Of a stretch of DNA of 64,000 bases, positions 5,369 through 54,450 are shown in pieces. The notes under the pieces were generated by a model. It saw only the letters and a program-made list of their open reading frames with translations, made no database searches and was not told where the DNA came from. Every line of letters starts with the position of its first letter. Position 1 is the stretch's first letter. The stretch lies in the IMG/VR virus record IMGVR_UViG_3300044733_004754, one strand, 5' to 3'. A program made the position numbers and the translations under genes. Source of the stretch: a virus.

Positions 5369-5883
5369 AATTTAAGCACGTTAAACCTGATGATATAATC
5401 CTTACCAGAAACACCGAGCCCTTCAGTTTTTCGGATCCACCTATTGATCCTATTGAGCTTGCAAAAGATCTTTATGAAACACTGATGGAAACAAAATACC
5501 TAGGGTTGTCAGCACCACAAGTAGGTTTGCCATATCGAGTGTTTGCTCTAAGAACAACGCCTGGTATTGTTTGCTTTAATCCTAAAATTGTTGATAGGTC
5601 AAACGAAGAACTACTTCTTGATGAAATGAGTATGACACATGAACATCTGATTGTTCCTGTAAAAAGACCGAAGAAAATAAAAGTACGGTTTACTCTACCG
5701 AATGGGGAAATAAAGACTGAAGTATTTGATGGTATGACCGCGAGATATTTCATGCATCACCTTGACTACCTCGATGGCGTCGTGTATACTCAGCGAGCCA
5801 ATAAGCTACACTATCAGCGCGCTTTGCGCAAGAAAAAAATCTTAGATAGGCAGAACAAACGTGAACAAAAGGATATAGAATGA
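5365..5883 (+). CDS. def: Peptide deformylase-like protein with degenerate catalytic motifs
   Basis: LGLSAPQVG and NPKI match the PDF fold, but EGCLS reads EMSMT and QHExDH reads MHHLDY. Confidence 0.85.
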   Translation: MKFKHVKPDDIILTRNTEPFSFSDPPIDPIELAKDLYETLMETKYLGLSAPQVGLPYRVFALRTTPGIVCFNPKIVDRSNEELLLDEMSMTHEHLIVPVKRPKKIKVRFTLPNGEIKTEVFDGMTARYFMHHLDYLDGVVYTQRANKLHYQRALRKKKILDRQNKREQKDIE

Positions 5884-6641
5884 AGACAGTAATCTTTGGA
5901 AAGGGTAAGGTGGGTATGGCCACCGATATTACTTTGGAAACAAATGCAGACTTTCATGATCCATATAAGGGGGTTCATGTTGATGATTTTAGTAAATATG
6001 AGCTTGCTATCATTTGTGTATCTTCACTAGTTGAAGGACCACATGATCACTCGGCCATTACCGAATGTTTGGTAAAATTAAATGATGTAAAGTTTGATGG
6101 ATTGATTGCCATTCGCTGTACAGTTTCGCCAGCATTTCTCAGCTTGTGGGAAAAACAGTTTCCCAATTTGAAGATCGTTCATTTCCCCGAATTCATGAAA
6201 CAAGGGGATGACAATTATTTGGACGAACCGTGGATTGTTGTGCTTGGAGGTAAGACATCCTTGACGCAGGAGCTTGGTGCATTCCTCATGCGACGTGGGT
6301 ATGGTACTCCTTCAATGCTACACTTTTGTAGCTTAGCTGAGAGCTCACTCATCAAACTACATCAGAACGCAGGACTTGCATTAAAAGTAACATATGCAAA
6401 CATTATGTACGAAACGTGCAAAGCATACGGAGCTGATTATGATGTTGTACGTAAAGGTGTAGCCGCGGATGTACGCGTTGGGCCAGGACACTTGCAAGTA
6501 CCTGGTGAACATGGTTTTGGATTTGCTGGCCATTGTCTACCGAAGGACCTACGTTGCTTAGACAACGCATCCTACAATAGAGGGTTCTGGAATAAAATCC
6601 TTTCTATTAATGATGAACTGAGGAAAAAGAATGTCGGATAA
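5880..6641 (+). CDS. UDP-glucose/GDP-mannose dehydrogenase-like protein (short, lacks C-terminal domain)
   Basis: GKGKVG Rossmann motif, PEF, and GFAGHCLPKD catalytic-Cys motif. Confidence 0.8.
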   Translation: MKTVIFGKGKVGMATDITLETNADFHDPYKGVHVDDFSKYELAIICVSSLVEGPHDHSAITECLVKLNDVKFDGLIAIRCTVSPAFLSLWEKQFPNLKIVHFPEFMKQGDDNYLDEPWIVVLGGKTSLTQELGAFLMRRGYGTPSMLHFCSLAESSLIKLHQNAGLALKVTYANIMYETCKAYGADYDVVRKGVAADVRVGPGHLQVPGEHGFGFAGHCLPKDLRCLDNASYNRGFWNKILSINDELRKKNVG

Positions 6642-7542
6642 AAAGATTGCCTATAGTGAAATCTTTCACTCAATACAGGGTGAGGGACATTACACTGGGC
6701 GCCCTACGGCATGGCTGCGATTCTTTCTGTGTAACCTGCAGTGCAATGGTTTTGGACAAAAAGATCCTACCGATCCTTCAACGTATGTTCTGCCCTATAA
6801 AGAGGTTAACATTGAAGGTATTAAAAGACTCGAGGATCTTCCTGTTTGGAAATATGGATGTGATTCGTCATATTCGTGGTCGGCAAAATTTAAGCATTTG
6901 CAGCATAAGCACATAGCAGAGGATATTTGCACACGTATCCGTCAATCAATGTACCATCCAACTAATCTAGAAGGTAGATTTAACAAAGTTGACGGTACAA
7001 TGCAGCATATGTGCTTTACAGGTGGTGAGCCCTTGATGCGCCATGCACAAATGGCTGCTATTGATATCATTGATCACTTCGCGACAGAAGGCGATTACCC
7101 GTTGTTCATGACGTGGGAGACTAACGGAACACAGGAACTGACGTCGGAGTTTTCTGATTACTTTAGTTCTTATCCGGGTGAAGTATTCTTTTCCGTTTCA
7201 CCAAAACTGTTTACAACATCGGGAGAAAAAACAGAGGATGCTATTAAGCCTGAGATCGTAAAGACCTATGAAGACCTCTCACCACATGGTCAACTGAAGT
7301 TTGTCGTGAACGGCTCAGTTGAGTCATGGAATGAATTGGAAACAACACTAGTTAAATTCAGAGAAGCAGGCGTGACATATCCTGTTTGGGTAATGAGTGC
7401 TGGTGCCACACTCGAGGCTCAAAAAGGAACCGAAGCTAACTACATCGGAGAAGCTCATATTGCTCAAGAAGCATATAAGCGTGGTTACAACTACTCCTCG
7501 CGTGTGCATGTTCACATCTGGGGAAACACTATGGGGACATAA
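6631..7542 (+). CDS. queE: 7-carboxy-7-deazaguanine synthase, radical SAM
   Basis: EIFHSIQGEG, CNLQC...GCD, TGGEPL, ETNGT, SVSPKL, RVHVHIWG. Confidence 0.92.
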   Translation: MSDKKIAYSEIFHSIQGEGHYTGRPTAWLRFFLCNLQCNGFGQKDPTDPSTYVLPYKEVNIEGIKRLEDLPVWKYGCDSSYSWSAKFKHLQHKHIAEDICTRIRQSMYHPTNLEGRFNKVDGTMQHMCFTGGEPLMRHAQMAAIDIIDHFATEGDYPLFMTWETNGTQELTSEFSDYFSSYPGEVFFSVSPKLFTTSGEKTEDAIKPEIVKTYEDLSPHGQLKFVVNGSVESWNELETTLVKFREAGVTYPVWVMSAGATLEAQKGTEANYIGEAHIAQEAYKRGYNYSSRVHVHIWGNTMGT

Positions 7543-7545
7543 TAA

Positions 7546-8073
7546 ATGATGTGGGATTCGCAATACGGGCCTAGACCAAGGCAATACAAATACGTTTCAA
7601 CAAAAGAATATCACGATGCATTTCCTTGTGCATATAGGCAGTGGAAAGCCGACAGTCATTGCAACATGATCCATGGTTACAGTTTCTCAATGAAGTTCTA
7701 TTTTGGAACTGATCACCTCGATGTTCGTAATTGGGTTGCGGATTATGGTGGCCTAAAAGAGCTCAAACATTTTCTAGAAAGCCAATTTGATCATACGTTG
7801 CTCGTAGCTCAGGATGACCCTGAACTCGAGATTTACAAAGAGCTTGAAAGACGTAAGCTGGCCAAGCTAACAATCCTTTCTAAGCTGGGCTGTGAAGGAT
7901 TAGCCGATCAGCTTTATAAATATGTTAATGGTGTTTACATTCCTGATATGTGGGGACCCAGTGAGGCAAAGCGTTTGTGGTGCTTCCGTGTGGAAGTTCG
8001 TGAAACGCAAAGCAATATGGCTTTTAGAGAGGGTCATAGAGAATGGGATGAAGATTTGTTTGAAGGATTATGA
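7546..8073 (+). CDS. queD: 6-carboxytetrahydropterin synthase
   Basis: HCNMIHGY (CxxxHGH-like), DYG.LK, FDHTLL, VRET. Confidence 0.88.
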   Translation: MMWDSQYGPRPRQYKYVSTKEYHDAFPCAYRQWKADSHCNMIHGYSFSMKFYFGTDHLDVRNWVADYGGLKELKHFLESQFDHTLLVAQDDPELEIYKELERRKLAKLTILSKLGCEGLADQLYKYVNGVYIPDMWGPSEAKRLWCFRVEVRETQSNMAFREGHREWDEDLFEGL

Positions 8074-8927
8074 TGAGTGTAAGAATTTTAGTTATGGGGC
8101 TACCTGGATCAGGTAAGACGTACTTGACGCAGCGATTGAAAGAATATATTGAAACGCGTAGCGACTTTAGTACTATGCCATCAGAGAAACTCCTCAATTA
8201 TGAAGCACCTCCTCTGTTTTATAAATCGACTGTTGAATGGTTTAATGCAGATGAGATCCGTAAGAAATTTAATGATTGGGATTTTTCAAAAGAAGGAAGA
8301 ATCCGTCAGTCATTAAGAATGGCTCAATTTGCTTTAGCTTGTAAAAGCGATTATGTTATTTGTGATTTTATTGCCCCACTACCCGAGATGCGTCATAACT
8401 TTAAAGCAGATTGGGTAATTTGGATGGACACAATCGATGTCGGTAAGTATCAAGATACAAACAAGATGTTTGTTCCACCTGACCTATATGATTTTAGAAT
8501 TACAGAGATGAATGCGGAGAAATGGGTACCCTTTATTGGCGAACACATTCTGCATAACGAGCGACGTCCAACATTCAGTTGGAACAAGCCAACAGTTCAA
8601 ATGCTCGGAAGATGGCAGCCGTGGCATGGAGGACATCGAGCTTTGTTTGAGCGTGCTATAAAAAAGACCGGTCAAGTGTGTATAATGATTAGGGATAGTC
8701 ATGGTACGACGGGCAATCCATTTACAGCTGAACAAGTTAAAGATTTTGTTAAACGTGATCTGGACCCTGAGTATCAAGGCATGTATGAAGTAATACTCGT
8801 CCCCAACATTACAAACATTACATATGGTCGCGATGTTGGATACACAATTGAACAAGAAACATTTGATGAGGCTATAACAAATATCAGTGCTACTAATATC
8901 AGAAAAATGATGGGAATAATCAAATGA
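8070..8927 (+). CDS. APS kinase-like domain fused to an HxGH nucleotidyltransferase (candidate mini PAPS synthase)
   Basis: N-terminal GLPGSGKT, NADEIR, DFSKEGR (CysC-like); C-terminal GRWQPWHGGH, YGRDVG, ISATNIR. Confidence 0.7.
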   Translation: MMSVRILVMGLPGSGKTYLTQRLKEYIETRSDFSTMPSEKLLNYEAPPLFYKSTVEWFNADEIRKKFNDWDFSKEGRIRQSLRMAQFALACKSDYVICDFIAPLPEMRHNFKADWVIWMDTIDVGKYQDTNKMFVPPDLYDFRITEMNAEKWVPFIGEHILHNERRPTFSWNKPTVQMLGRWQPWHGGHRALFERAIKKTGQVCIMIRDSHGTTGNPFTAEQVKDFVKRDLDPEYQGMYEVILVPNITNITYGRDVGYTIEQETFDEAITNISATNIRKMMGIIK

Positions 8928-9556
8928 TCGTTTGTGCTACACCACGTTCAGGTGCAACTAAGTTTGCTTCTGATAAGGCTAAGGAACTTAATATCGAATA
9001 TTACGATGAAGTACGTCCAGGGACTACTAAGGTGTTCAGACAGTCCTTTAATAATGTAAAGTGGTTTACGGGTGGGAAAGGACAATACCACGAGCTGCCC
9101 TACACTAACCACTTAGATATGGAAAAGTTTTACGAAGTTTCAAAAGATCCAGGTAATCCAAATTACATCATTCTTGCCAATGGTACGAACAGTCATTGGT
9201 TGTTTGATAGAGCTGATTGGTTTGTAGCACGTCGAAATCTATATGACTGGATGTGTTCCGTATGTAACTTCTGGCTCTTGAACCGGCAAGGTAATATGGG
9301 CGTGCAATTAATGCAAACATATCTTGCATTCATGTTTGAAAATGCGTACGTGTTGTATGATTATTGTACACGAATGAATAAAAAAATTGAATGGTATGAA
9401 GATATGCCATATGCGCGGCGAACTCCGTATGTGTGGCTTAATAAGCATCCCGAATACAAAGAGATTCTTCGTACAATGGAATCATTCGTTCAATACACAA
9501 AAATACTTGATGTGAATAAAGAATTAACGTATGATAGAGGTTTTAAGGAGATATGA
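8924..9556 (+). CDS. Sulfotransferase-like protein
   Basis: N-terminal IVCATPRSGATKF resembles the 5'-PSB loop; RRNLYDWMCS resembles the 3'-PB R...S motif; follows the CysC-like gene. Confidence 0.55.
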   Translation: MIVCATPRSGATKFASDKAKELNIEYYDEVRPGTTKVFRQSFNNVKWFTGGKGQYHELPYTNHLDMEKFYEVSKDPGNPNYIILANGTNSHWLFDRADWFVARRNLYDWMCSVCNFWLLNRQGNMGVQLMQTYLAFMFENAYVLYDYCTRMNKKIEWYEDMPYARRTPYVWLNKHPEYKEILRTMESFVQYTKILDVNKELTYDRGFKEI

Positions 9557-10230
9557 TGGATAAAACCGATCCGCAGTTGGGTGAACAGGTACGTCAACAT
9601 CTTATTAAGGTTGGCCTTGAAACCCCTATGAACTATGACCTTGTAAAAATTAGTAACGAGGAAAAAATCGAGAAGATTAAGAACAACTTCTCTGAAATTA
9701 TGAATACGCTTGGTTTAGATCTAAGTGATGACTCTTTGTGTGATACTCCTAACCGTGTCGCAAAGATGTTTGTCAATGAAATCTTCTTTGGATTGGATTA
9801 CGATAATTTTCCAAAATGCACGCGTATTCAAAACAAGATGGGTGTCAACAACAGCTTTGTCCTAGAACGTAATGTTAATGTTCAATCAAACTGCGAACAT
9901 CATTTTGTAATCATCGACGGTAAAGCTACTGTGGCTTACATTCCGCGTGACACTATTCTAGGCCTTTCAAAACTCAATCGTATTGTTCAGTTCTTTGCTA
10001 AGCGTCCACAAGTACAGGAAAGGCTTACAGAACAAATTGCAGAAACGATTAGCTTCATCACTGGTTCCCCTGACGTTGCTGTATACATCGTTGGTGTGCA
10101 TTATTGTGTGAAATCACGAGGAATTCAGGACGTTGGTTCTTCAACAATGACGCTTGCAACACGCGGTGCATTCTCCGAGGAGCGCTCTGAAATTCGTCGC
10201 GAATTCCTTAATACGGCAAGGATGATGTGA
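9553..10230 (+). CDS. folE: GTP cyclohydrolase I
   Basis: TPNRVAKM, CEHH, LGLSKLNR, RPQVQERLT, HYCVKSRG. Confidence 0.96.
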   Translation: MMDKTDPQLGEQVRQHLIKVGLETPMNYDLVKISNEEKIEKIKNNFSEIMNTLGLDLSDDSLCDTPNRVAKMFVNEIFFGLDYDNFPKCTRIQNKMGVNNSFVLERNVNVQSNCEHHFVIIDGKATVAYIPRDTILGLSKLNRIVQFFAKRPQVQERLTEQIAETISFITGSPDVAVYIVGVHYCVKSRGIQDVGSSTMTLATRGAFSEERSEIRREFLNTARMM

Positions 10231-10781
10231 AGCCATATTGCTACCTCACATGGGATGAGCCGTTTGAGGATTACACCAAGCAACTCCAACATTTTGTTAA
10301 AAGAACTGGTTTTATAGAAAAAGGCACGTTCTTTAACCCTGTTGGAGCTGCTCGTGTATACGATGCAATCCCGTCACTTAAAACACTTTTTGAAAGACAC
10401 GGCTTACATGACTTCCATTCAATGGCCGTAATACGCGTGCTGCCTGCAACAGTTGCACCTAACTATCCACACACGGACGTGATGCCATCACCTAACCAAA
10501 AGGTAGCAATTAACTGGCCAGTGTTTAACTGTGAAGAAACTTTTACCTGTTTTTATGAGGAAAAAGAAAACGCCAATCCACAACTAGTAAAGTTGAGTAA
10601 TGGGTTGCCCTATAAAAAATACAGCTACGAAGATGTTATCGAAATGCACAGGATAAAGATCAATCGTCCAGTTGCACTTCGATATGATGTCTTACACGCT
10701 GTTGTCAACGAAACAAAAAATGTCCGCATTACAACATCGTTTCGATTTGACTTAAACCACTGGGAACTGTTTAATGGCTAA
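10227..10781 (+). CDS. Putative Fe(II)/2OG oxygenase-like (DSBH) protein
   Basis: HTD...LHAV...R.TTSFRF pattern (HxD...H...R). Confidence 0.5.
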   Translation: MKPYCYLTWDEPFEDYTKQLQHFVKRTGFIEKGTFFNPVGAARVYDAIPSLKTLFERHGLHDFHSMAVIRVLPATVAPNYPHTDVMPSPNQKVAINWPVFNCEETFTCFYEEKENANPQLVKLSNGLPYKKYSYEDVIEMHRIKINRPVALRYDVLHAVVNETKNVRITTSFRFDLNHWELFNG

Positions 10782-11157
10782 AGTATACTTTTGTCGTTTC
10801 ACCGACAAGCGAACAAAACAAGTATTCTATAAGTTTGGTCACACATCTAAACAAGACGTTAATGAACGCTTTGATCCAAAGTATGATACGCGCTACAGCG
10901 AATTTCAAATTAAAGCTATTTGCAGTATTAAGGGTACGCTAGAGTGGTGTCAGCAAATTGAGGAGATGTTCAAGGTTCTTTTCCCAAAGAACATATGGCT
11001 CGAAGAGTTTTTCAATGATGAGAGGAAATGGGATAACTTTTCGGGTATTACCGAAATCGTTTATCTCAATAAAGATGAGTACGAGCGAGTGCGTGACGCT
11101 TTTTATTTCTTGAAAGAGTCACAAGCCAAAATAGAGGAAGAACATGAGTATCTTTAA
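10774..11157 (+). CDS. GIY-YIG/T5orf172-like putative nuclease
   Basis: VYFCRF...FYKFGHT...VNERF...IEE...GITE pattern. Confidence 0.5.
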   Translation: MAKVYFCRFTDKRTKQVFYKFGHTSKQDVNERFDPKYDTRYSEFQIKAICSIKGTLEWCQQIEEMFKVLFPKNIWLEEFFNDERKWDNFSGITEIVYLNKDEYERVRDAFYFLKESQAKIEEEHEYL

Positions 11158-11749
11158 ATATCCAGATTGGTCTACAATTCATCACCTTTACTGGACAGAT
11201 ATAATTGAACAGTGCATGGATATTACTCAGCCAGTTAGAATGATTGAGGTTGGCTGTTTTGAGGGTCGGTCAACAATGTGGTTTGCTGATCGTTTAATAA
11301 ATGAGGAGTCACGTTTATTCTGTATCGACACATGGCAAGGTGGCGAAGAGATTGAACGGGTGGGGCTTGACTTTGATATGGAAGAAGTGAAATCTAATTT
11401 CTTCCATAATATAGCAGAACATCCTTACAGCAAGCAGATCATGCCTCTAGTAGGTACGTCACAAAAGATATTGACAATGTTGCTTCATGATATGTACACT
11501 CGACCCGACTTTATCTACTTGGATGGGTCACATACTCAGAAAGACACATTGATAGACTTGGTTCTTTCACTCAGTCTTGTAAAGGTCGGAGGAATTGTTG
11601 TTGTTGACGATTACATGAACAGTATGTCTACAAAAAATGAACTCTTACGTCCAAGAAAGGCTGTTGATTTTGTTGTATCATCTTTTGGAGATTCAGTAAG
11701 TTTTTCAACAACGCCTGAGAAACAGGCTGTCATCATAAGGAACAATTGA
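11144..11749 (+). CDS. Class I SAM-dependent methyltransferase (Methyltransf_24-like)
   Basis: IEVGCFEGRS, CIDTW, DFIYLDGSH, GGIVVVDDY. Confidence 0.85.
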   Translation: MSIFKYPDWSTIHHLYWTDIIEQCMDITQPVRMIEVGCFEGRSTMWFADRLINEESRLFCIDTWQGGEEIERVGLDFDMEEVKSNFFHNIAEHPYSKQIMPLVGTSQKILTMLLHDMYTRPDFIYLDGSHTQKDTLIDLVLSLSLVKVGGIVVVDDYMNSMSTKNELLRPRKAVDFVVSSFGDSVSFSTTPEKQAVIIRNN

Positions 11750-12147
11750 TGGAAAAGAAGTCGTTTATTTGGGTTACCTTCCAGAAAGAAGGTATTCACA
11801 GGTATCCTGAAGCAGGCATTGATCCTGCATTGAAGACGGGTGATTGGCTTGATGTTAGTTTCCTAGCCGAACCACATCGTCACATCTTCCATTTCCGTGT
11901 TGAGATGGAAGTCTTTCATGACAACCGTGATGTTGAGTTCATTCAACTTAAACGTATTATTGAGAGCTGGTATAGGACGAACGTGCTTCAGCTTGATTTT
12001 AAGTCGTGTGAGATGATAGCACGTGACCTACACATGCAACTCATTATCCAATGGCCGGCACGGGATTATGTTGTCGAAGTATCAGAAGATGGTGAGAATG
12101 GCTGCCGAATTTATTTCCCTAAGGATACCTATGTCAAGCGCGATTAA
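11749..12147 (+). CDS. QueD-paralog T-fold protein, DpdL-like (candidate CDG decarboxylase)
   Basis: LAEPHRHIF, DVEFI, KSCEMIA, VSEDGENG; second T-fold gene in the cluster, next to the transglycosylase. Confidence 0.7.
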   Translation: MEKKSFIWVTFQKEGIHRYPEAGIDPALKTGDWLDVSFLAEPHRHIFHFRVEMEVFHDNRDVEFIQLKRIIESWYRTNVLQLDFKSCEMIARDLHMQLIIQWPARDYVVEVSEDGENGCRIYFPKDTYVKRD

Positions 12148-13000
12148 TTTTTGTCATATTAGCCCTACAGCATATTTGGACAAGTACACGTCTACTAATG
12201 GGGCTCATTTGATTCTGGCTCATCTCGTTGAGACGGATCCTGTGTATCGAGATTATTATGCTAATCTTGAGGATGGTAAATACAAGATCATGGACAACAG
12301 TGCTTTTGAGATGTTTAAGCTCGGTAAACCGATGTATGAATCAGCGAAACTCATTGAAATGGGTAAGGCATGTAAGGCTGATTGTATTGTTATGTCTGAC
12401 TATCCGAAACAACCATCTGATGTTACTATCGACGCAGCAAAGAATTTGATTCCGCAATTCAAAGATAGCGGATTCGATACATTCTTTGTTCCACAGAGTC
12501 AGCTTGGTGATATGGACGATCTTATGGTGGCCATTGAATGGGGTCTTCAAAACGAAGATGTAACCCTTATCGGACTTTCAATCCTTTCAACGCCAATTGC
12601 TTGTGGTGTTGATGAGTCAACGTTTGAAGGTGGTAAACGTCACGATGCATATAAATTGCAGCGTTATCTGTCGCGTCTAAGAGTGTTTCATGAGCTCGAA
12701 GCTCGTGGGTATCTTGATGTGTACAGATCCTTTAAACGATTTCATTGTTTGGGGATGGTGGATGGGCCTAGAGAAATCGATCTGCTTCGGAAATATGAAG
12801 ACTATATCTTTTCGTGGGACTCGAGTGCAGCAGTATGGGCTGGCATTAACGGTGTGAGTTTTGACAGCTCACCTACAGGATTAATGTATGGAAAGTTTGA
12901 AAAGGAAGTTGATTTTGACTACGAGGGCGAACATAATGCTCGGTTAGTGATGAGTAACATTCATTTTATCAACGACCTTATTGAAGGAGTCTCTGTGTGA
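12131..13000 (+). CDS. dpdA: TGT-fold 7-deazaguanine DNA transglycosylase (DpdA-like, possibly DpdA3)
   Basis: IMDNSAFE (cf. DSGxF), MSD, FVPQ, FHCLG, SWDSS; inside the folE/queD/queE cluster. Confidence 0.72.
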   Translation: MSSAINFCHISPTAYLDKYTSTNGAHLILAHLVETDPVYRDYYANLEDGKYKIMDNSAFEMFKLGKPMYESAKLIEMGKACKADCIVMSDYPKQPSDVTIDAAKNLIPQFKDSGFDTFFVPQSQLGDMDDLMVAIEWGLQNEDVTLIGLSILSTPIACGVDESTFEGGKRHDAYKLQRYLSRLRVFHELEARGYLDVYRSFKRFHCLGMVDGPREIDLLRKYEDYIFSWDSSAAVWAGINGVSFDSSPTGLMYGKFEKEVDFDYEGEHNARLVMSNIHFINDLIEGVSV

Positions 13001-13566
13001 AGGTTATTGCTCTGACAGGTCCGAAAGGATCAGGCAAAGACACAGCAGCTGATTTCATTTGTAAATATTATACAAATGTTGAGAAGGCTGCTTTTGCTGA
13101 TCCGATCAAGTATATTGTGCAGCATATTTTTAAACTAGATAGTCATTCTAGTCGTGAATATGATCGTCTTAAAAGAAGTAATTTGAGTTTTGAAGATCCG
13201 TCTACTCAAACGACATGGCGTGGAATTAATGGAAGGCATGTTGTTCGTGAGATTGGTATGTTAATGCGTAGTTATGATGAACAACAATTTAATCACTACA
13301 TTCAAAAAGCTATTATTGAAGCGGCAGCGCGCCGCTCCAGTATATTTGTTGTTACAGATTTGAGATTCGACAACGAATATATTATGCTTCGCCGGCACGG
13401 AGCAAAGATCGTAAAGATTGCAAGGCCTGATTATCAGTATGATGGCCATATTACAGAGCGTGGGTTTGATGATCATTTAATCGATTATGTTATTGACAAT
13501 AATGGTTCGCTCGGAGCTTTTGAAGTTAATGTAATGGATGTGATTGATAAGATTATTAAGGAGTGA
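12997..13566 (+). CDS. Deoxynucleoside monophosphate kinase (T4 gp1-like)
   Basis: GPKGSGKDT, AFADPIK, VVTDLRFDNE, HITE. Confidence 0.88.
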   Translation: MKVIALTGPKGSGKDTAADFICKYYTNVEKAAFADPIKYIVQHIFKLDSHSSREYDRLKRSNLSFEDPSTQTTWRGINGRHVVREIGMLMRSYDEQQFNHYIQKAIIEAAARRSSIFVVTDLRFDNEYIMLRRHGAKIVKIARPDYQYDGHITERGFDDHLIDYVIDNNGSLGAFEVNVMDVIDKIIKE

Positions 13567-13568
13567 TT

Positions 13569-14228
13569 ATGAAACATATTATGGGGCCGAACAGTAAGTC
13601 ACAATTGACTAATGTTCAGCAAGACGATGTACAACCAAATGCTGTTGATCTAAGACTTGGCAAAATCTTCAAAGTGTCTTCTTCGACATTTAAAATTGAT
13701 GAGAAAGAAAAGGTACATCGTGGATCATATGAAATCAAACCAGATGCAACTGGGTATTTCAATCTAGCAGAAGGCCATTATGAAGTCGTAATGGAAAATA
13801 TGATTACGGTTGGAGACAATGAAGCAGGGTGGGTTATTACGCGCTCTACGCTGAACCGTAACGGCGTCTTCCTCACATCAGGTTTGTATGATACAGGATA
13901 CGACGGAGTAATGGCTGGAATGATGCACGTTACGTGTGGTCCAATGCGTATCCAAAAGGGTACACGTATCGGTCAATACCTTTCATTCAATGCCGAATCC
14001 CTTCACAAGTACGAAGGAGATTATGGTAAGAATAAGTCTCACGATAAGAAATATCAGGGCGATCCAACTGTAAGCGCAGCCTCACTTGAAGCTACTATGG
14101 CCCTGTTGCAAGGCGACGAGGATAAATCTAATCAAGTGCTAAACGAAGCACTTAATCCACCTAAACGTAAACCAGGAAGACCTTTCGGGACAACGAAAGA
14201 TGAAATGGCAAAAAGGAATTCGCAATGA
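13569..14228 (+). CDS. dCTP deaminase/dUTPase-family protein with C-terminal extension
   Basis: QPNAVDLRL, RSTLNRNG, YDTGYDG, RIGQ. Confidence 0.85.
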   Translation: MKHIMGPNSKSQLTNVQQDDVQPNAVDLRLGKIFKVSSSTFKIDEKEKVHRGSYEIKPDATGYFNLAEGHYEVVMENMITVGDNEAGWVITRSTLNRNGVFLTSGLYDTGYDGVMAGMMHVTCGPMRIQKGTRIGQYLSFNAESLHKYEGDYGKNKSHDKKYQGDPTVSAASLEATMALLQGDEDKSNQVLNEALNPPKRKPGRPFGTTKDEMAKRNSQ

Positions 14229-15079
14229 CATTTGAAATTAAAGTACCTATTGAAGTTCTACGGAGACGTAAACTATTTGTGGCAACACCGATGTATGGTG
14301 GAGCTTGTGCAGGCATGTATGCACGCTCTATTGCTGACCTGTCTGCTATTTGTACACGTTATGGGATCACGCTTCAGCTCTACTACCTCTTTAACGAGTC
14401 ACTAATCACACGTGCTCGTAACTACTGTGTGGATGAGTTTATGCGCAGCGATGCAACACACCTCATGTTTATTGATAGTGATATTGGGTTTAATCCAAAC
14501 GATGTTATTGCTTTGCTTGCGTTGCAAGACGAAGAAAGTCCGTACGATGTGATTGGTGGTCCCTATCCTAAGAAATGTATCTCGTGGGAAAAGATCAAAC
14601 TAGCTGTCGATAAGGGGTTTGCTGATGAAGACCCAAACAGACTAGAGAAGTTTGTTGGTGACTATGTTTTCAATCCTAAAGGTGGACAACGTGAGATTCC
14701 TATTGGTCAGCCTGTTGAGGTGATGGAACTTGGTACAGGGTTCATGATGATTCGTCGCAAGACGTTTGAAGTTTATCGCGATACGTATCCTGAGCTGTCG
14801 TACAAGCCCGATCATGTTCGTACTGAAGCCTTTGATGGCTCACGCGAGATCCATGCATACTTTGATTGTATCATTGATCCACAGAGCAAACGGTATCTTT
14901 CAGAGGATTATAACTTTTGTTATCATGTTGCCAAGGCAGGTATGAAGACATGGTTATGTCCATGGATGAGCATGAACCACGTTGGTAGCTATATCTTTGG
15001 TGGTAGCTTGGCTGACCTTGCTGCAATCGGTGCTCCGGCTACTGCAGATACTGGAATGTTGAAGAAAGGTAAAAAATGA
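14225..15079 (+). CDS. GT-A fold glycosyltransferase-like protein
   Basis: ESLITRARN, FIDSDI (DxD), GTGFMMI, LSEDYNFC. Confidence 0.75.
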   Translation: MTFEIKVPIEVLRRRKLFVATPMYGGACAGMYARSIADLSAICTRYGITLQLYYLFNESLITRARNYCVDEFMRSDATHLMFIDSDIGFNPNDVIALLALQDEESPYDVIGGPYPKKCISWEKIKLAVDKGFADEDPNRLEKFVGDYVFNPKGGQREIPIGQPVEVMELGTGFMMIRRKTFEVYRDTYPELSYKPDHVRTEAFDGSREIHAYFDCIIDPQSKRYLSEDYNFCYHVAKAGMKTWLCPWMSMNHVGSYIFGGSLADLAAIGAPATADTGMLKKGKK

Positions 15080-15741
15080 AACTTGAAAATCGTACAGTAC
15101 AGATTCTAAAGAACTTTGCTACGATTAATCCTTCAATGTTGTTTCGTGAGGGCAATACGCAGGTAACTATTGCTCCTCAACGGAACATTCTTGCTCGAAC
15201 GACGGTCGCAGAGAACTTTCCTAAAGAGTTTGCTATCTTTGATCTATCACGGTTTATTGGAGTGCTATCATTATTTAATGAACCTGAGATTGAATATGAT
15301 GATTCGCGCCTACTGATTAGTCAAGGCCAGCAAAAGGTTGCATATACATTTGCTGACCCATCGTTCATTGTGGCACCCCCATCAAAGACGCCTAATGTTC
15401 AAGATCCTGAGATCCTGTTTCGCCTGACATCCGAGCACTTGCAATCTACTATGCGTGCTCTTGGTGCTCTTCAAGCAACGCATATTATTGTAGAAGGGGA
15501 TGGCGAAAACATTAGTATTGGTGTTGGTAAGCCGAGTGATCCGACAGGAGATACATTTAAGATTGAAGTAGGTCTTAGCAACCATTCATTTAAGTTTGCT
15601 TTCAAAGCAGAGAACATTAAAATCCTGACAGGTGATTATGACGTACAAATTTCCTCTCGCAACATTTCTCATTTCAAAGGTAGTGATGTAGAATATTGGA
15701 TTATGGCAGATGCTAATCATTCCAACTTTGATACGAAATAA
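15076..15741 (+). CDS. gp45: Sliding clamp gp45
   Basis: LKNFATINPS, FAIFDLSRF, GDYDVQIS, EYWI; synteny with gp44. Confidence 0.93.
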   Translation: MKLENRTVQILKNFATINPSMLFREGNTQVTIAPQRNILARTTVAENFPKEFAIFDLSRFIGVLSLFNEPEIEYDDSRLLISQGQQKVAYTFADPSFIVAPPSKTPNVQDPEILFRLTSEHLQSTMRALGALQATHIIVEGDGENISIGVGKPSDPTGDTFKIEVGLSNHSFKFAFKAENIKILTGDYDVQISSRNISHFKGSDVEYWIMADANHSNFDTK

Positions 15742-15746
15742 AAAAC

Positions 15747-16685
15747 ATGCGAGAAGATTTTCTTTGGGTCGAGCGCTATCGACCCCGTACTATTCGTGAT
15801 ACGATTCTACCAGAGGAGCTGAAGGTAACCTTTCAGAAGTTTGTTGATGAAGGTAATATTCCTAATATGCTTTTTACTGGTCGTGCTGGTATTGGTAAGA
15901 CCACTGTTGCGCGAGCTCTCTTGGAGCAAATTGGTGCAGATTATATTGTTATTAATAGCAGTATGCATGGTAATATTGATACTCTTCGCACTGATATACT
16001 TAATTTTGCATCAACCGTTAGCTTTAGTGGGGGTCGTAAATATGTTATTCTAGACGAGGCCGACTATCTCAATCCTAATAGTACACAACCTGCTCTTCGT
16101 AATTTTATAGAGCAGTATAGTAAGAACTGCGGCTTCATCCTCACATGCAACTTTAAAAATAAGTTGATTGAGCCTTTGTGGTCAAGGTGTAGCGTTGTTG
16201 ATTTTGTTATCCCTAAAGAACAACGCTCAAAGATGGCTGCCGCATTCTTCAAACGTGTAAAAGATATCCTCACAACAGAAGGTGTAGAGTACGATAGTAA
16301 AGCAGTTGTGTCAGTGATTGAGAAACACTTCCCCGACTGGCGTCGAGTGTTGAACGAACTCCAACGATACTCGGCGACAGGTAGAATCGATACAGGTATT
16401 CTATCCAACTTGCAAGAGGAAACATTCAAAACACTCGTTGGGTACCTTAAAAATAAGGAATTCACGAACGTTCGTAAATGGGTGGCTGAGAACGCTGATA
16501 TCGATCAGCATGTATTCTTCCGTAAATTTTATGACTCGTCGTATGAGTTTATGAACTCATCTTCAGTAGCACAACTGGTACTACTTCTCTCAAAATACCA
16601 ATATCAAGCAGCTTTTGTTGCTGATCAGGAGATTAATATGGCAGCATGCTTGACCGAAGTTATGGTCGAATGTGAGTTCAAATGA
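15747..16685 (+). CDS. gp44: Clamp loader large subunit gp44
   Basis: WVERYRP, GRAGIGKT, DEAD, SRC, FPDWRR. Confidence 0.95.
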   Translation: MREDFLWVERYRPRTIRDTILPEELKVTFQKFVDEGNIPNMLFTGRAGIGKTTVARALLEQIGADYIVINSSMHGNIDTLRTDILNFASTVSFSGGRKYVILDEADYLNPNSTQPALRNFIEQYSKNCGFILTCNFKNKLIEPLWSRCSVVDFVIPKEQRSKMAAAFFKRVKDILTTEGVEYDSKAVVSVIEKHFPDWRRVLNELQRYSATGRIDTGILSNLQEETFKTLVGYLKNKEFTNVRKWVAENADIDQHVFFRKFYDSSYEFMNSSSVAQLVLLLSKYQYQAAFVADQEINMAACLTEVMVECEFK

Positions 16686-17212
16686 ACTCTGTTGTGATAA
16701 CAGGTCATACCGGTGGTCTTGGATCAGTTCTTATGTCCAAATATCAAGAAAAAGGATGGACCGTATTTGGTGCTTCACGAAGAACAGGGTATGACTTTTC
16801 ACAGCCTCGCGTAGCTCGTAACTTTTGTGAACAGTTACGTGGTTATGATGTTCTGATAAACACAATTACCGGATCAGCTCAACGTAACGTTTTAGAACAC
16901 ATGCACACTCAGTGGAGAGATCAGAAAAAAATAATCTTAAATGTTGGTAGTCGTGCAACACAGTATGGAGCTTCACCTTCTATTTCATATAGTGCAGACA
17001 AAGCTGCTTTAGATTTTGTTGTATCATCACTACAAGCACATGGACCACGTTGGCCAGCTATACTACATATACGTCCGGGTTTTTTTGATTCGAAGCGTGT
17101 TGAGTTGAAAAATGTTCCTAAGATGAAGACGGAGGATGTAGCTGATATGATTATGTTTATGATCGATAATGTTCATAAGTTTAGAATTCTTGATATGATC
17201 CTTGTAGTATGA
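16682..17212 (+). CDS. Short-chain dehydrogenase/reductase-like protein
   Basis: ITGHTGGLG, NVGS, YSADK (YxxxK), IRPG. Confidence 0.8.
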   Translation: MNSVVITGHTGGLGSVLMSKYQEKGWTVFGASRRTGYDFSQPRVARNFCEQLRGYDVLINTITGSAQRNVLEHMHTQWRDQKKIILNVGSRATQYGASPSISYSADKAALDFVVSSLQAHGPRWPAILHIRPGFFDSKRVELKNVPKMKTEDVADMIMFMIDNVHKFRILDMILVV

Positions 17213-51728: not shown

Positions 51729-52714
51729 ACGCTACTAAAAGAAAATTAAAACTAACAGATGAAAGAAGTTCATTCAAACCATTTAACTACCCTTGGGCAT
51801 ATGATGCATGGTTGAAACATGAACAGAGTCACTGGCTACACACCGAAGTTCCAATGATTGAGGATGTGAAAGATTGGAAGAACAAACTAACAGTATCCGA
51901 AAAGAAGTTCTTAACAAATATCTTCCGGTTCTTTACGCAGGGAGATGTGGACGTTGCGGGCGGATACGTCAAGAACTACTTACCGTACTTTCCGCAGCCG
52001 GAGGTGCGAATGATGTTGAGTGGTTTTGCTGCAAGGGAAGCACTTCATGTAGCTGCTTACAGTCACTTGATCGAGACCTTAGGAATGCCGGAGTCAACGT
52101 ACAACGAGTTCCTAGAGTACGAAGAGATGAGAGCGAAGCACGACTACTTCTTATCGATTGCAGGCCAGGATCAGCAGACAATTGCACAGCAGATTGCGGC
52201 ATTCAGCGCGTTTACAGAGGGAATGCAGCTTTTTTCGAGCTTCATCATGCTCCTAAACTTTCCACGTCATGGGAAGATGAAAGGGATGGGTCAAATTGTG
52301 ACATGGAGTATTGTAGATGAAACAATGCATGCAGAGTCTATGATAAAGTTGTTCCGTACATTCATCGAAGAAAACAGGGACATTTGGAATGATGAGCTTA
52401 AAGGACAAATCTATACAATTGCTGGAAAAATGGTTGAGCTCGAAGATCGGTTTATCGATTTATCATTTAGTATGGGTAGTATGGATAATCTGGACGCTGA
52501 CGACGTTAAACGTTATATCCGCTATATTACTGATCGTCGCCTTATCAGTCTTGGTCTCAAAGGTATTATGAAGGTAAAGAAGAACCCTTTGCCTTGGGTC
52601 GAAGAAATGATTAATGCTCCAACACATACAAACTTTTTTGAAAACCGTGCTACCGACTATGCGAAGGGCGCGGTAACTGGTTCGTGGGATGAGGTTTGGG
52701 CCAAAGCGGCCTAA
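51725..52714 (+). CDS. nrdB: Ribonucleotide reductase class I small subunit
   Basis: FFTQGD, REALHVAAY, EGMQLFSSF, DETMH, NFFENRATDY. Confidence 0.96.
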   Translation: MNATKRKLKLTDERSSFKPFNYPWAYDAWLKHEQSHWLHTEVPMIEDVKDWKNKLTVSEKKFLTNIFRFFTQGDVDVAGGYVKNYLPYFPQPEVRMMLSGFAAREALHVAAYSHLIETLGMPESTYNEFLEYEEMRAKHDYFLSIAGQDQQTIAQQIAAFSAFTEGMQLFSSFIMLLNFPRHGKMKGMGQIVTWSIVDETMHAESMIKLFRTFIEENRDIWNDELKGQIYTIAGKMVELEDRFIDLSFSMGSMDNLDADDVKRYIRYITDRRLISLGLKGIMKVKKNPLPWVEEMINAPTHTNFFENRATDYAKGAVTGSWDEVWAKAA

Positions 52715-52736
52715 TTTTAATTTAATTTGTGAGGAA

Positions 52737-53747
52737 ATGATGAGAAATTTTATTGGTGTATTTTTAATGCTTTTATCTGGTTATGTTAGTGCTCAAAACA
52801 TTATTACAGGAGCAGGAGCAACGTTCCCATATCCAATCTATGCAAAATGGGCGGAAGCGTACAAGAAAGAATCTGGTGTCGGATTGAACTATCAAAGTAT
52901 TGGTAGTTCGGGCGGTATCCGACAAATTAACTCGGGTACGGTTACGTTTGGTGCCTCAGACGCTCCTGTAAAAGGGGATGAGTTAGAAAAAAGAGGACAG
53001 GTGCAGTTCCCTGCAATTATTGGAGGGACTGTACCAATTGTAAACTTAGATGGGTTTGCACCTGGTGAACTACGGATTACAGGTCCTGTTCTTGCACGGG
53101 TTTTTATGGGTACGATCACTCGTTGGAACGACCCTCAACTCCGTGAGTTAAATCCTGGAAAAAATCTTCCTAACTCTGCTATTACAGTAGTTCACCGAGC
53201 AGATGGATCTGGTACAACATTCAACTTCACTGATTATTTGACAGTTGTTAGTAAGGAGTGGGAAGAAAAAGTTGGAAGAGGTGCAGCAGTAAAGTGGCCA
53301 GCTGCTAGTTCAGTCGGCGGTAAAGGCAATGAAGGTGTAGCTGCTAATGTTGGTAGAATTAAAGGATCAATCGGTTATGTTGAATATGCTTATGTTAAAA
53401 AGAATAACATGACATATCTCAAATTACAAAATAAAGATGGAGCATTTGTCGATCCAGATGATACATCATTTGCTGCTGCAGCAGAGGGGGCGGACTGGTT
53501 TAGCATACCGGGAATGGGTCTCAGTATTGTTGAACAGCCTGGTAAGATTACTTGGCCTATCAGTACTGCTAGCTTCATTATCATGTACAAAGAGCCAAAG
53601 GATAAAAAAGCAAGTGATGATGTGTTGAAGTTTTTTGACTGGGCGTTTAAAAATGGTGCCAAAATGAGTGAAGAACTAGACTATGTGCACTTGCCTGTAT
53701 CTCTTCAAAACGAAATTAGGAAACGTGTTTGGTCTCAAATTAAGTGA
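52737..53747 (+). CDS. pstS: Phosphate ABC transporter substrate-binding protein
   Basis: Signal peptide, GAGATFPYP, YQSIGSSGG, FGASD, RADGSGTT. Confidence 0.95.
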   Translation: MMRNFIGVFLMLLSGYVSAQNIITGAGATFPYPIYAKWAEAYKKESGVGLNYQSIGSSGGIRQINSGTVTFGASDAPVKGDELEKRGQVQFPAIIGGTVPIVNLDGFAPGELRITGPVLARVFMGTITRWNDPQLRELNPGKNLPNSAITVVHRADGSGTTFNFTDYLTVVSKEWEEKVGRGAAVKWPAASSVGGKGNEGVAANVGRIKGSIGYVEYAYVKKNNMTYLKLQNKDGAFVDPDDTSFAAAAEGADWFSIPGMGLSIVEQPGKITWPISTASFIIMYKEPKDKKASDDVLKFFDWAFKNGAKMSEELDYVHLPVSLQNEIRKRVWSQIK

Positions 53748-53757
53748 AGGATGCGAC

Positions 53758-54450
53758 ATGGCTAAGGGATACTTAAATTTTCGTGATGGAACAGAACTTG
53801 ATCTTGATTATGCCTTCCCAAGCCATCTCAAGAAAGTAGCCATGTCAATGTCAGGAGGGGTGGAGTCAGCAGCACTCTACCTTCTCCTCGAACGTTTCTA
53901 TGGTAAAGAAAACGTGTATGTGTTTACAGCTCATGTACCACGACGTTATTGGGAAGCCGTGAAAGCACTTGAGCTCTGTGATTATCTTGGCGTTACACAA
54001 AGAAAGGTTATATCAGATACTCCTGCGTTTAATGATATGAGTCCTCCTGAGAACAAACGCATGAGGCTACTTGCTAAGCAGCAATGTAATTTTGATGGAT
54101 GGTTCAATGGGGCCAATAAACTCATGTTCGCTCCGACAAAAATACTATCACAAACACAAAAAAATTTTGTTAGATCAGAAAACGTTTACCTGCCTTTTAT
54201 TGACCTCTTAAAACAAAACACGATCGAAATCTTTTACCTTCTTAGTCGACAAGATGTCTTGTTTAACACTCACTCCTGTACGATAAACCATTTCAATAAC
54301 AATCATTGTGGTACGTGTTACTGTTGTCATGAACGAGTGAGAGGGTTTGCTGTTTTGGGCGAGCGAGACAAAGCTACATATAACGTCGAGTGGAATAACA
54401 TGCTTCAAGAGTGTTTCTACAGCGACAAACATATAGTTAAAAACTGGTAG
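53758..54450 (+). CDS. QueC-like PP-loop ATPase
   Basis: MSGGVES PP-loop, PF..L.K, THSC...CGTCYCCHER zinc site. Confidence 0.75.
   Translation: MAKGYLNFRDGTELDLDYAFPSHLKKVAMSMSGGVESAALYLLLERFYGKENVYVFTAHVPRRYWEAVKALELCDYLGVTQRKVISDTPAFNDMSPPENKRMRLLAKQQCNFDGWFNGANKLMFAPTKILSQTQKNFVRSENVYLPFIDLLKQNTIEIFYLLSRQDVLFNTHSCTINHFNNNHCGTCYCCHERVRGFAVLGERDKATYNVEWNNMLQECFYSDKHIVKNW

Follow-up and report, generated by a model that had tools for sequence, protein, structure and literature searches.

The 64,000-nucleotide stretch of viral DNA analyzed here (IMG/VR record IMGVR_UViG_3300044733_004754), referred to throughout as the window, belongs to the genome of a T4-like phage and has a G+C content of ~40%. 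Among its products are a Rad50-like gp46, the clamp protein gp45, and the clamp loader gp44. Between gp46 and gp45 lies a candidate 7-deazaguanine DNA-modification module. Fifteen plus-strand genes fill positions 5880-15741, and every junction between them is either an overlap of 1-17 nt or a 3-nt gap. A preliminary description, made from the sequence alone, had picked out five genes of this region as a translationally coupled operon: queE, queD, folE, a gene for a second T-fold protein, and a gene for a protein with the fold of tRNA-guanine transglycosylase (TGT). All five proved to be real open reading frames (ORFs) coupled through junctions of this kind, at the following positions:

6631-7542, plus strand: QueE-like radical S-adenosylmethionine (SAM) protein, predicted 7-carboxy-7-deazaguanine (CDG) synthase, 303 residues (phrog_2076 and E. 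coli QueE matches)
7546-8073, plus strand: predicted QueD, a 6-carboxytetrahydropterin synthase with a T-fold (Pfam PTPS and phrog_2389 matches)
9553-10230, plus strand: predicted FolE, GTP cyclohydrolase I (NCBIfam and Pfam matches)
11749-12147, plus strand: predicted DpdL, a QueD paralogue and proposed CDG decarboxylase, 132 residues from ATG (motif, homology to Cellulophaga phage phiST, T-fold)
12131-13000, plus strand: predicted DpdA3-family transglycosylase, 289 residues, with a TIM-barrel TGT fold and no zinc subdomain (modeled fold and family profile)

Searched by megablast, 50,697 phage records contained no match to the operon, and no near-identical cultured relative was found; near-identical sequence is present in contigs of 142-166 kb. 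Conservation was assessed in 25 IMG/VR relatives and four cultured phages, namely Aeromonas phage Ahp1_CNU-2021, Vibrio phages D479 and Bakedbeans, and Rhizobium phage RHph_I1_18; these four carry the module with its products labeled "hypothetical protein". The QueE, QueD, FolE, DpdL, and DpdA3 core is kept in both groups, while the genes inserted into it vary. DpdL lies directly 5′ of DpdA3 in 24 of 24 close loci and in 11 of 13 divergent ones, and placement of the module between gp46/PDF and gp45 is common to RHph_I1_18. The module is widespread in uncultured T4-like phages: the DpdA3 clade comprises 1249 clusters at 90% identity (1016 representatives at 50%), and the DpdL family at least 8000 homologous clusters.

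FolE exceeded the cut-offs of NF006824 (299.3 bits against 202) and TIGR00063 (217 against 181.6), and matched Pfam PF01227 with an E-value of 1.8e-54. QueD matched Pfam PF01242 (PTPS) at 54.3 bits against a cut-off of 22.4 and phrog_2389 at E 1.2e-34; the NCBIfam QueD model gave 35 bits against a cut-off of 89. Its signature reads CNMIHGY, in which Tyr replaces the second zinc-binding His of CxxxHGH, and the same CxxxHGY variant occurs in QueD of phiST, ACP17, and RHph_I1_18. QueE matched phrog_2076 across its full length (E 1.3e-51) and was detected by tblastn with E. coli QueE (E 4e-5), whereas the NCBIfam QueE equivalogs, at 23-37 bits against cut-offs of 200-300, matched only its N-terminus. 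Alignment revealed that its cluster motif is CX3CX38C instead of CX3CX2C, owing to a 38-residue insertion between the second and third Cys. E. coli, Escherichia phage CAjan, and ACP17 have CX3CX2C in their QueE; the insertion is shared by Ahp1 and is present in shorter form at the same site in phiST. Homology shows that the predicted enzymes for the route from GTP to CDG are present at the locus.

For the second T-fold gene, the choice between QueD and DpdL, which the preliminary description had favored, was settled for DpdL by motif, by similarity to phiST, and by fold. Its sequence LAEPHRHIF fits LxxxHRHxF, the motif that sets DpdL apart from QueD, with CxxxHGH (PMC10516641). Among 14 DpdL sequences, including those of phiST, ACP17, Ahp1, D479, and RHph_I1_18, H44, H46, and F48 do not vary and R45 hardly does. 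BLASTP aligned the protein over its full length with phiST CGPG_00067 (37% identity, E 1e-18), and proteins of ACP17 and PA5oct are ~50% identical to it. No Pfam model (including PTPS) or NCBIfam model matched 11749-12147, and hhalign against phage QueD gave a partial alignment (66%). The structural model is of moderate quality, with a predicted local distance difference test score (pLDDT) of 64.9 and a poor N-terminus. Its 22 best matches in VIA are all T-fold enzymes, the best being PTPS 2dj6 (Z 8.6, root-mean-square deviation 2.5 over 93 residues, 27% identity), with E. coli QueD 3qn0 at Z 7.4; the Foldseek leaders are likewise E. coli QueD (E 0.04). Searches of the PDB with DpdL and DpdA3, as single sequences and as profiles, retrieved no PTPS or TGT, and fold comparison alone found them. 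In the literature searched, nothing on DpdL or DpdA3 is later than 2023.

The TGT fold that had been read into 12131-13000 from short motifs was borne out by structure prediction. The AlphaFold 2 model, built on 16 homologues, has a pLDDT of 88.9 and a predicted TM score of 0.87, and its top 50 Foldseek matches in the PDB are all archaeosine TGT (ArcTGT), DpdA, or TGT, with E-values down to 4.5e-8 and ArcTGT 1iq8, DpdA 7ui4, and TGTs in the lead. The closest named viral model in BFVD is M4SLA5 of phiST (E 6e-16, TM 0.77/0.85), which is CGPG_00065, the founding DpdA3 (PMC10516641). Sequence comparison led to the same protein. A profile of 62 DpdA3 family members matched CGPG_00065 at positions 2-268 of 271 (E 4.6e-45), with no match in CAjan, which carries a DpdA1, and none in ACP17; hhalign of the family against phiST DpdA3 gave 97% probability over 243 columns. 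Pairwise identity to phiST DpdA3 is ~23-27%, and no Pfam model (including TGT, PF01702) or NCBIfam model matched 12131-13000. This placement among the DpdA subfamilies was made by direct comparison with phiST DpdA3 and CAjan DpdA1 only; tblastn with phiST DpdA3 did not reach the Campylobacter phages. ACP17 gp123 and gp124 were considered as DpdA3 candidates and rejected, since hhalign of the DpdA3 family gave no match and gp124 is glycosyltransferase-like. By modeled fold and by homology to phiST, 12131-13000 is a predicted DpdA3-family transglycosylase.

Four positions are conserved among the 62 DpdA3 members: D55 (61/62, within DNSAFE), D90 (53/62, with Glu in six others, within SDYP), Q/H122 (61/62; Q122 within PQS), and D230 (61/62, within WDSS). 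Their order is that of the TGT/DpdA active-site residues given for structure 7UI4 (PMC10164549). D90 and D230 align with the FDEC and FDC motifs of E. coli Tgt in an hhalign match that is non-significant on its own, and D55 is placed by motif order only.

Based on these sequence comparisons and on the analogy with phiST, we consider it likely that 6631-13000 is a DpdL/DpdA3-type 7-deazaguanine DNA-modification module that gives 2′-deoxy-7-deazaguanosine (dDG) in an uncultured T4-like phage. That the locus is a deazaguanine DNA-modification system of some kind appears highly likely, while for the main product we lean, by analogy with phiST, somewhat toward plain dDG. FolE, QueD, and QueE would convert GTP to CDG, DpdL would strip the carboxyl group from CDG to yield 7-deazaguanine, and DpdA3 would swap guanine for 7-deazaguanine by TGT double-displacement chemistry via D55, D90, and D230. 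In virion DNA, dDG would replace most or all 2′-deoxyguanosine (dG), and the DNA would be protected from guanine-dependent restriction enzymes, an effect that has been measured in phiST. The DNA of phiST, which carries these five genes too, contains 302,000 dDG per 10^6 nt and no dG (PMC10516641).

FolE, QueD, and QueE also feed tRNA queuosine, and the genes could in principle supply pterin or queuosine precursors to the host, in which case tRNA would be the substrate of the TGT-fold protein. We regard such a role as extremely improbable. The TGT-fold protein falls in the DpdA3 family and not with Tgt, and DpdL would take off the carboxyl group that queuosine requires. The window holds no QueF or QueA: tblastn with E. 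coli QueC, QueF, QueA, and Tgt returned nothing in the 64 kb at E<=0.1. A search for another TGT (PF01702) was negative in the four cultured relatives and in one complete IMG/VR relative. Moreover, the DNA of the phage that carries the founding DpdA3 is fully substituted (PMC10516641).

Several points weigh against a dDG-forming module. The decarboxylase activity of DpdL is unproven even for the founding phiST member, whose heterologous expression failed, and DpdL together with DpdA of phiST, or likewise of ACP17, yielded no dDG in E. coli (PMC10516641). The motifs of QueE (CX3CX38C) and QueD (HGY for HGH) are not those of the textbook enzymes, although the QueD variant recurs in phiST, as does the QueE insertion in a shorter form. 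The assignment of D55, D90, and D230 as the catalytic Asp residues of TGT draws on motif order and on a statistically weak alignment. Our view of the genome is restricted to 64 kb, and within it a QueC-family gene could divert CDG to 7-amido-7-deazaguanine (ADG) or 7-cyano-7-deazaguanine (preQ0). This gene was uncovered with the QueC-like protein of a complete relative (G001), having been missed by tblastn with E. coli QueC:

53758-54450, plus strand: divergent QueC-family PP-loop protein, 230 residues (Pfam QueC, phrog_1550, and hhalign matches)

The architecture had been described beforehand as QueC-free, which holds for the operon and fails for the window. Because the label applies to the operon only, an amido or cyano product in DNA (dADG or dPreQ0, the deoxynucleosides of ADG and preQ0) has to be considered, and the QueC-like protein might convert CDG to 7-amido- or 7-cyano-7-deazaguanine for insertion by DpdA3, so that the DNA contains dADG or dPreQ0, alone or with dDG. 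The protein has an intact PP-loop motif (SGGVES) and a four-Cys zinc motif (C-x9-CxxCxxC), both aligned with E. coli QueC by hhalign (94% probability, 167 columns). More distant QueC-like genes are present in G001 and D479, a canonical QueC adjoins the DpdA3-family gene in IMG/VR contig L057, and Campylobacter phage CP220 pairs DpdA3 with QueC* to make dADG (PMC10516641). We nevertheless judge this outcome improbable. The ORF lies 41 kb downstream of the operon beside a PstS-like gene; its Pfam QueC match (33.7 bits against a cut-off of 22) covers only C-terminal profile positions 153-207; and NCBIfam QueC TIGR00364 gave 24.5 bits against a cut-off of 150. The gene is absent from Ahp1, RHph_I1_18, Bakedbeans, and phiST, all of which keep DpdL and DpdA3, and it has 21 homologous clusters in 5.8 billion proteins, compared with 1249 for DpdA3. 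DpdL, in addition, is retained and coupled to DpdA3. The adjoining gene (52689-53747) encodes a PstS-like periplasmic phosphate-binding protein with a signal peptide, as judged from its translation only. PstS is a common auxiliary gene of aquatic phages.

Immediately downstream of DpdA3 are two genes with predicted functions in nucleotide metabolism:

12997-13566, plus strand: predicted deoxynucleoside monophosphate (dNMP) kinase of the T4 gp1 type (Pfam DNMK, 82.8 bits; phrog_139, E 3.5e-42)
13563-14228, plus strand: dUTPase/dCTP-deaminase-fold protein with a basic tail (Pfam DCD, 53.2 bits)

The start of the kinase gene overlaps the DpdA3 stop by 4 nt. The dUTPase-fold protein reached 90 bits with NCBIfam dUTPase NF002598, under the cut-off of 130, and ends in a Lys/Arg/Pro-rich C-terminal tail of 60 residues. 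The dNMP kinase is a conserved neighbor that may play a part in the deazaguanine pathway. The two genes also bear on when the base is exchanged. In a pre-replicative scheme, dGTP would first be cut to dGMP by a pyrophosphatase, for which the candidates are the dUTPase-fold protein in this phage and MazG in phiST. DpdA3 would swap guanine for 7-deazaguanine on this mononucleotide and not on DNA, and the product, once rephosphorylated by the adjoining dNMP kinase, would serve the polymerase in making fully substituted DNA, much as in the Z-genome of cyanophage S-2L.

The neighborhood of DpdA3 in other phages supplies most of what speaks for such a scheme. Of the 24 IMG/VR relatives that could be evaluated, 21 have a DNMK gene directly 3′ of DpdA3, as do the cultured phages Ahp1, D479, and Bakedbeans; Ahp1 has this kinase as a paralogue in addition to a canonical gp1 encoded elsewhere (167.8 bits). 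The dUTPase-fold gene is the most constant neighbor of DpdA3 (24/24 close and 11/12 evaluable divergent loci), and Ahp1 and D479 each have a second dUTPase-family gene elsewhere in the genome. RHph_I1_18 encodes a DpdA3 fused to a C-terminal DUF3310 (L005:8001-9269); the T7 gp1.7 nucleotide kinase has this Pfam domain and no other. Contig L057 (4341-5738) has the order canonical QueC, MazG, stand-alone DUF3310, DpdA3. In phiST, the gene 5′ of DpdA3 matches AAA_18, and MazG is found two genes before that, directly upstream of DpdL; in two further loci (L053 and L058), the gene 5′ of DpdA3 encodes a small P-loop kinase-type protein (AAA_28). No neighbors of these types, kinase and dUTPase included, were found beside DpdA in CAjan, our single DpdA1 control. 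All measured DpdA3 phages are fully substituted, and reconstitution in E. coli failed (PMC10516641). A weak further indication is that DpdA3 is acidic (pI 4.86).

Against this scheme, all TGT-fold enzymes characterized to date work on polynucleotides. Published work places the exchange after replication (PMC10516641). Genes for dNMP kinase and dUTPase are commonplace in T4-like phages, and common ancestry of many of the loci makes the counts non-independent. In G001 and D479 this is the only DNMK and may be the general gp1, and most divergent loci have no kinase adjoining DpdA3. In the DpdA3-DUF3310 fusion, the DUF3310 match only just reaches its cut-off (24.2 against 24). The control, CAjan with six close IMG/VR relatives, represents one lineage, and a tblastn search of phages with E. 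coli Tgt, run for a wider control, found bacterial-type Tgt only. The recurrent kinase and pyrophosphatase neighbors would fit an exchange of the base on free nucleotides ahead of replication without showing it to occur, and we consider exchange at this stage possible but unlikely. If it did take place, DpdA3 would not be a DNA-modifying enzyme but the first TGT-fold enzyme to exchange the base of a free deoxyguanine nucleotide, feeding 7-deaza-dGTP to the polymerase, and both the total replacement of G in DpdA3 phages and the failure of DpdA3 with DpdL in E. coli would be accounted for. Separately, in a 257-kb IMG/VR phage contig (L046:5797-6720), a gene for a PAS-GGDEF diguanylate cyclase was observed between DpdA3 and the dUTPase-fold gene.

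The core is interrupted by five other genes, and a glycosyltransferase (GT)-like gene follows the dUTPase-fold gene:

8070-8927, plus strand: P-loop kinase fused to an HxGH nucleotidyltransferase (weak matches to adenosine 5′-phosphosulfate kinase and of nicotinamide mononucleotide adenylyltransferase type; phrog_10255 in the insert 8070-9556)
8924-9556, plus strand: sulfotransferase-like ORF with TPRSGAT (Sulfotransfer_3 match in the Atlas, a lead only)
10227-11749, plus strand: unknown proteins of 184 and 127 residues, followed by a class-I SAM methyltransferase (11144-11749; Methyltransf_24, 65.4 bits)
14225-15079, plus strand: GT-A-like protein with FIDSDIGF (DSD motif), phrog_1574 (weak GT-A matches, no curated family above cut-off)

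The 184- and 127-residue ORFs had no family match in library scans of Pfam, NCBIfam, and PHROG. The kinase-nucleotidyltransferase and the sulfotransferase-like protein could constitute a 3′-phosphoadenosine 5′-phosphosulfate (PAPS) synthase/sulfotransferase pair or belong to NadR-like NAD salvage. Their insert (8070-9556) is absent from between QueD and FolE in five relatives that keep the core (L012, L017, and L026-28), and all five interleaved genes come and go independently, each being present in some relatives only. Because they are gained and lost in this manner, we interpret them as variable cassettes in a plastic region and not as members of the pathway.

It could be argued that these genes and the GT-like gene further elaborate the deazaguanine by sulfation, hydroxylation, methylation, or glycosylation to give an undescribed base. 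The cassettes are translationally coupled within the operon and the methyltransferase is a real SAM enzyme; the GT-like protein has its DSD motif and is kept in all close relatives; and ACP17 has a GT-like gene beside DpdL. This possibility is quite improbable in our estimation, since each cassette is missing from some relatives that keep the core, 7-deazaguanine has no obvious acceptor group, and the kinase-nucleotidyltransferase fusion fits NAD salvage and PAPS synthesis equally well. Glycosylated deazaguanine in particular was rejected as weak, because the GT-like gene tracks gp45 rather than DpdA3: it is found only where gp45 follows, always directly 5′ of it (also in RHph_I1_18), and Ahp1, D479, Bakedbeans, and 11 of 13 divergent loci have no such gene near DpdA3. 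A T4-type hydroxymethylcytosine role for the trio of dNMP kinase, dCTPase-like protein, and GT was likewise rejected as unlikely, since none of the relatives has a second ThyA-family gene and G001 lacks the family altogether. The module is flanked on one side by a truncated-looking nucleotide-sugar dehydrogenase of 253 residues with the central domain only (5880-6641) and on the other by a short SDR/epimerase-like ORF of 176 residues (16682-17212).

The biochemistry still needed on DpdL and DpdA3 could be done with the four cultured carriers. The kinase and pyrophosphatase neighbors, including the fusion, make it possible to test whether exchange occurs before or after replication, a question left open by published work. 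DNA in which deazaguanine has replaced all guanine also matters for restriction mapping, for sequencing chemistry, and for host range in phage therapy.

Among known systems, the bacterial Dpd system (DpdA/DpdB, 7UI4; PMC10164549) shares with the module the TIM-barrel TGT fold (Foldseek E 1.6e-7) and three active-site Asp residues. Bacterial DpdA differs in that it requires the DpdB ATPase, has 413 residues in the structure, and modifies <0.1% of G; the two structures resemble each other little (TM 0.52), and no DpdB was seen here. The Z-genome of cyanophage S-2L, where an NTP pyrophosphatase and nucleotide-level enzymes (PurZ, MazZ, DatZ) are reportedly clustered and base replacement is said to be complete, offers an analogy for the pre-replicative scheme only, as it involves a different base and different enzymes and no transglycosylase, and no PurZ homologue occurs here. 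The DpdA1 preQ0 system of Escherichia phage CAjan and the Queuovirinae resembles the module in having FolE, QueD, QueE, and a TGT-fold DNA transglycosylase as anti-restriction armor, and differs in its canonical QueC and preQ0 transporter, in having no DpdL, and in a modification that is partial and motif-specific. The dADG system of Campylobacter phage CP220, compared by its published description, likewise comprises a DpdA3-type enzyme, FolE, QueD, QueE, and a QueC-family gene in the genome, and replaces G completely (PMC10516641); it has no DpdL, and the QueC-like gene of our window is remote and very divergent.

The closest counterpart is the dDG system of phiST (Hutinet et al., NAR 2023, PMC10516641), which shares all five genes, the position of DpdL just 5′ of the DpdA3 region, the LxxxHRHxF motif in DpdL, a DpdA3 homologous over its full length, and the absence of a canonical QueC from the cluster. 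Genes for kinase-like and NTP-pyrophosphatase-like proteins lie beside DpdA3 in both phages, as AAA_18 and MazG in phiST and as DNMK and the dUTPase-fold protein here. phiST is a 79-kb siphovirus, unlike the large T4-like myovirus represented by the window, in which five unrelated genes are interleaved and a remote QueC-like gene is present; the dDG of phiST is a measured product. The architecture itself is already published (Hutinet et al., 2023, PMC10516641), and it is found here in a new host lineage, a T4-like phage.

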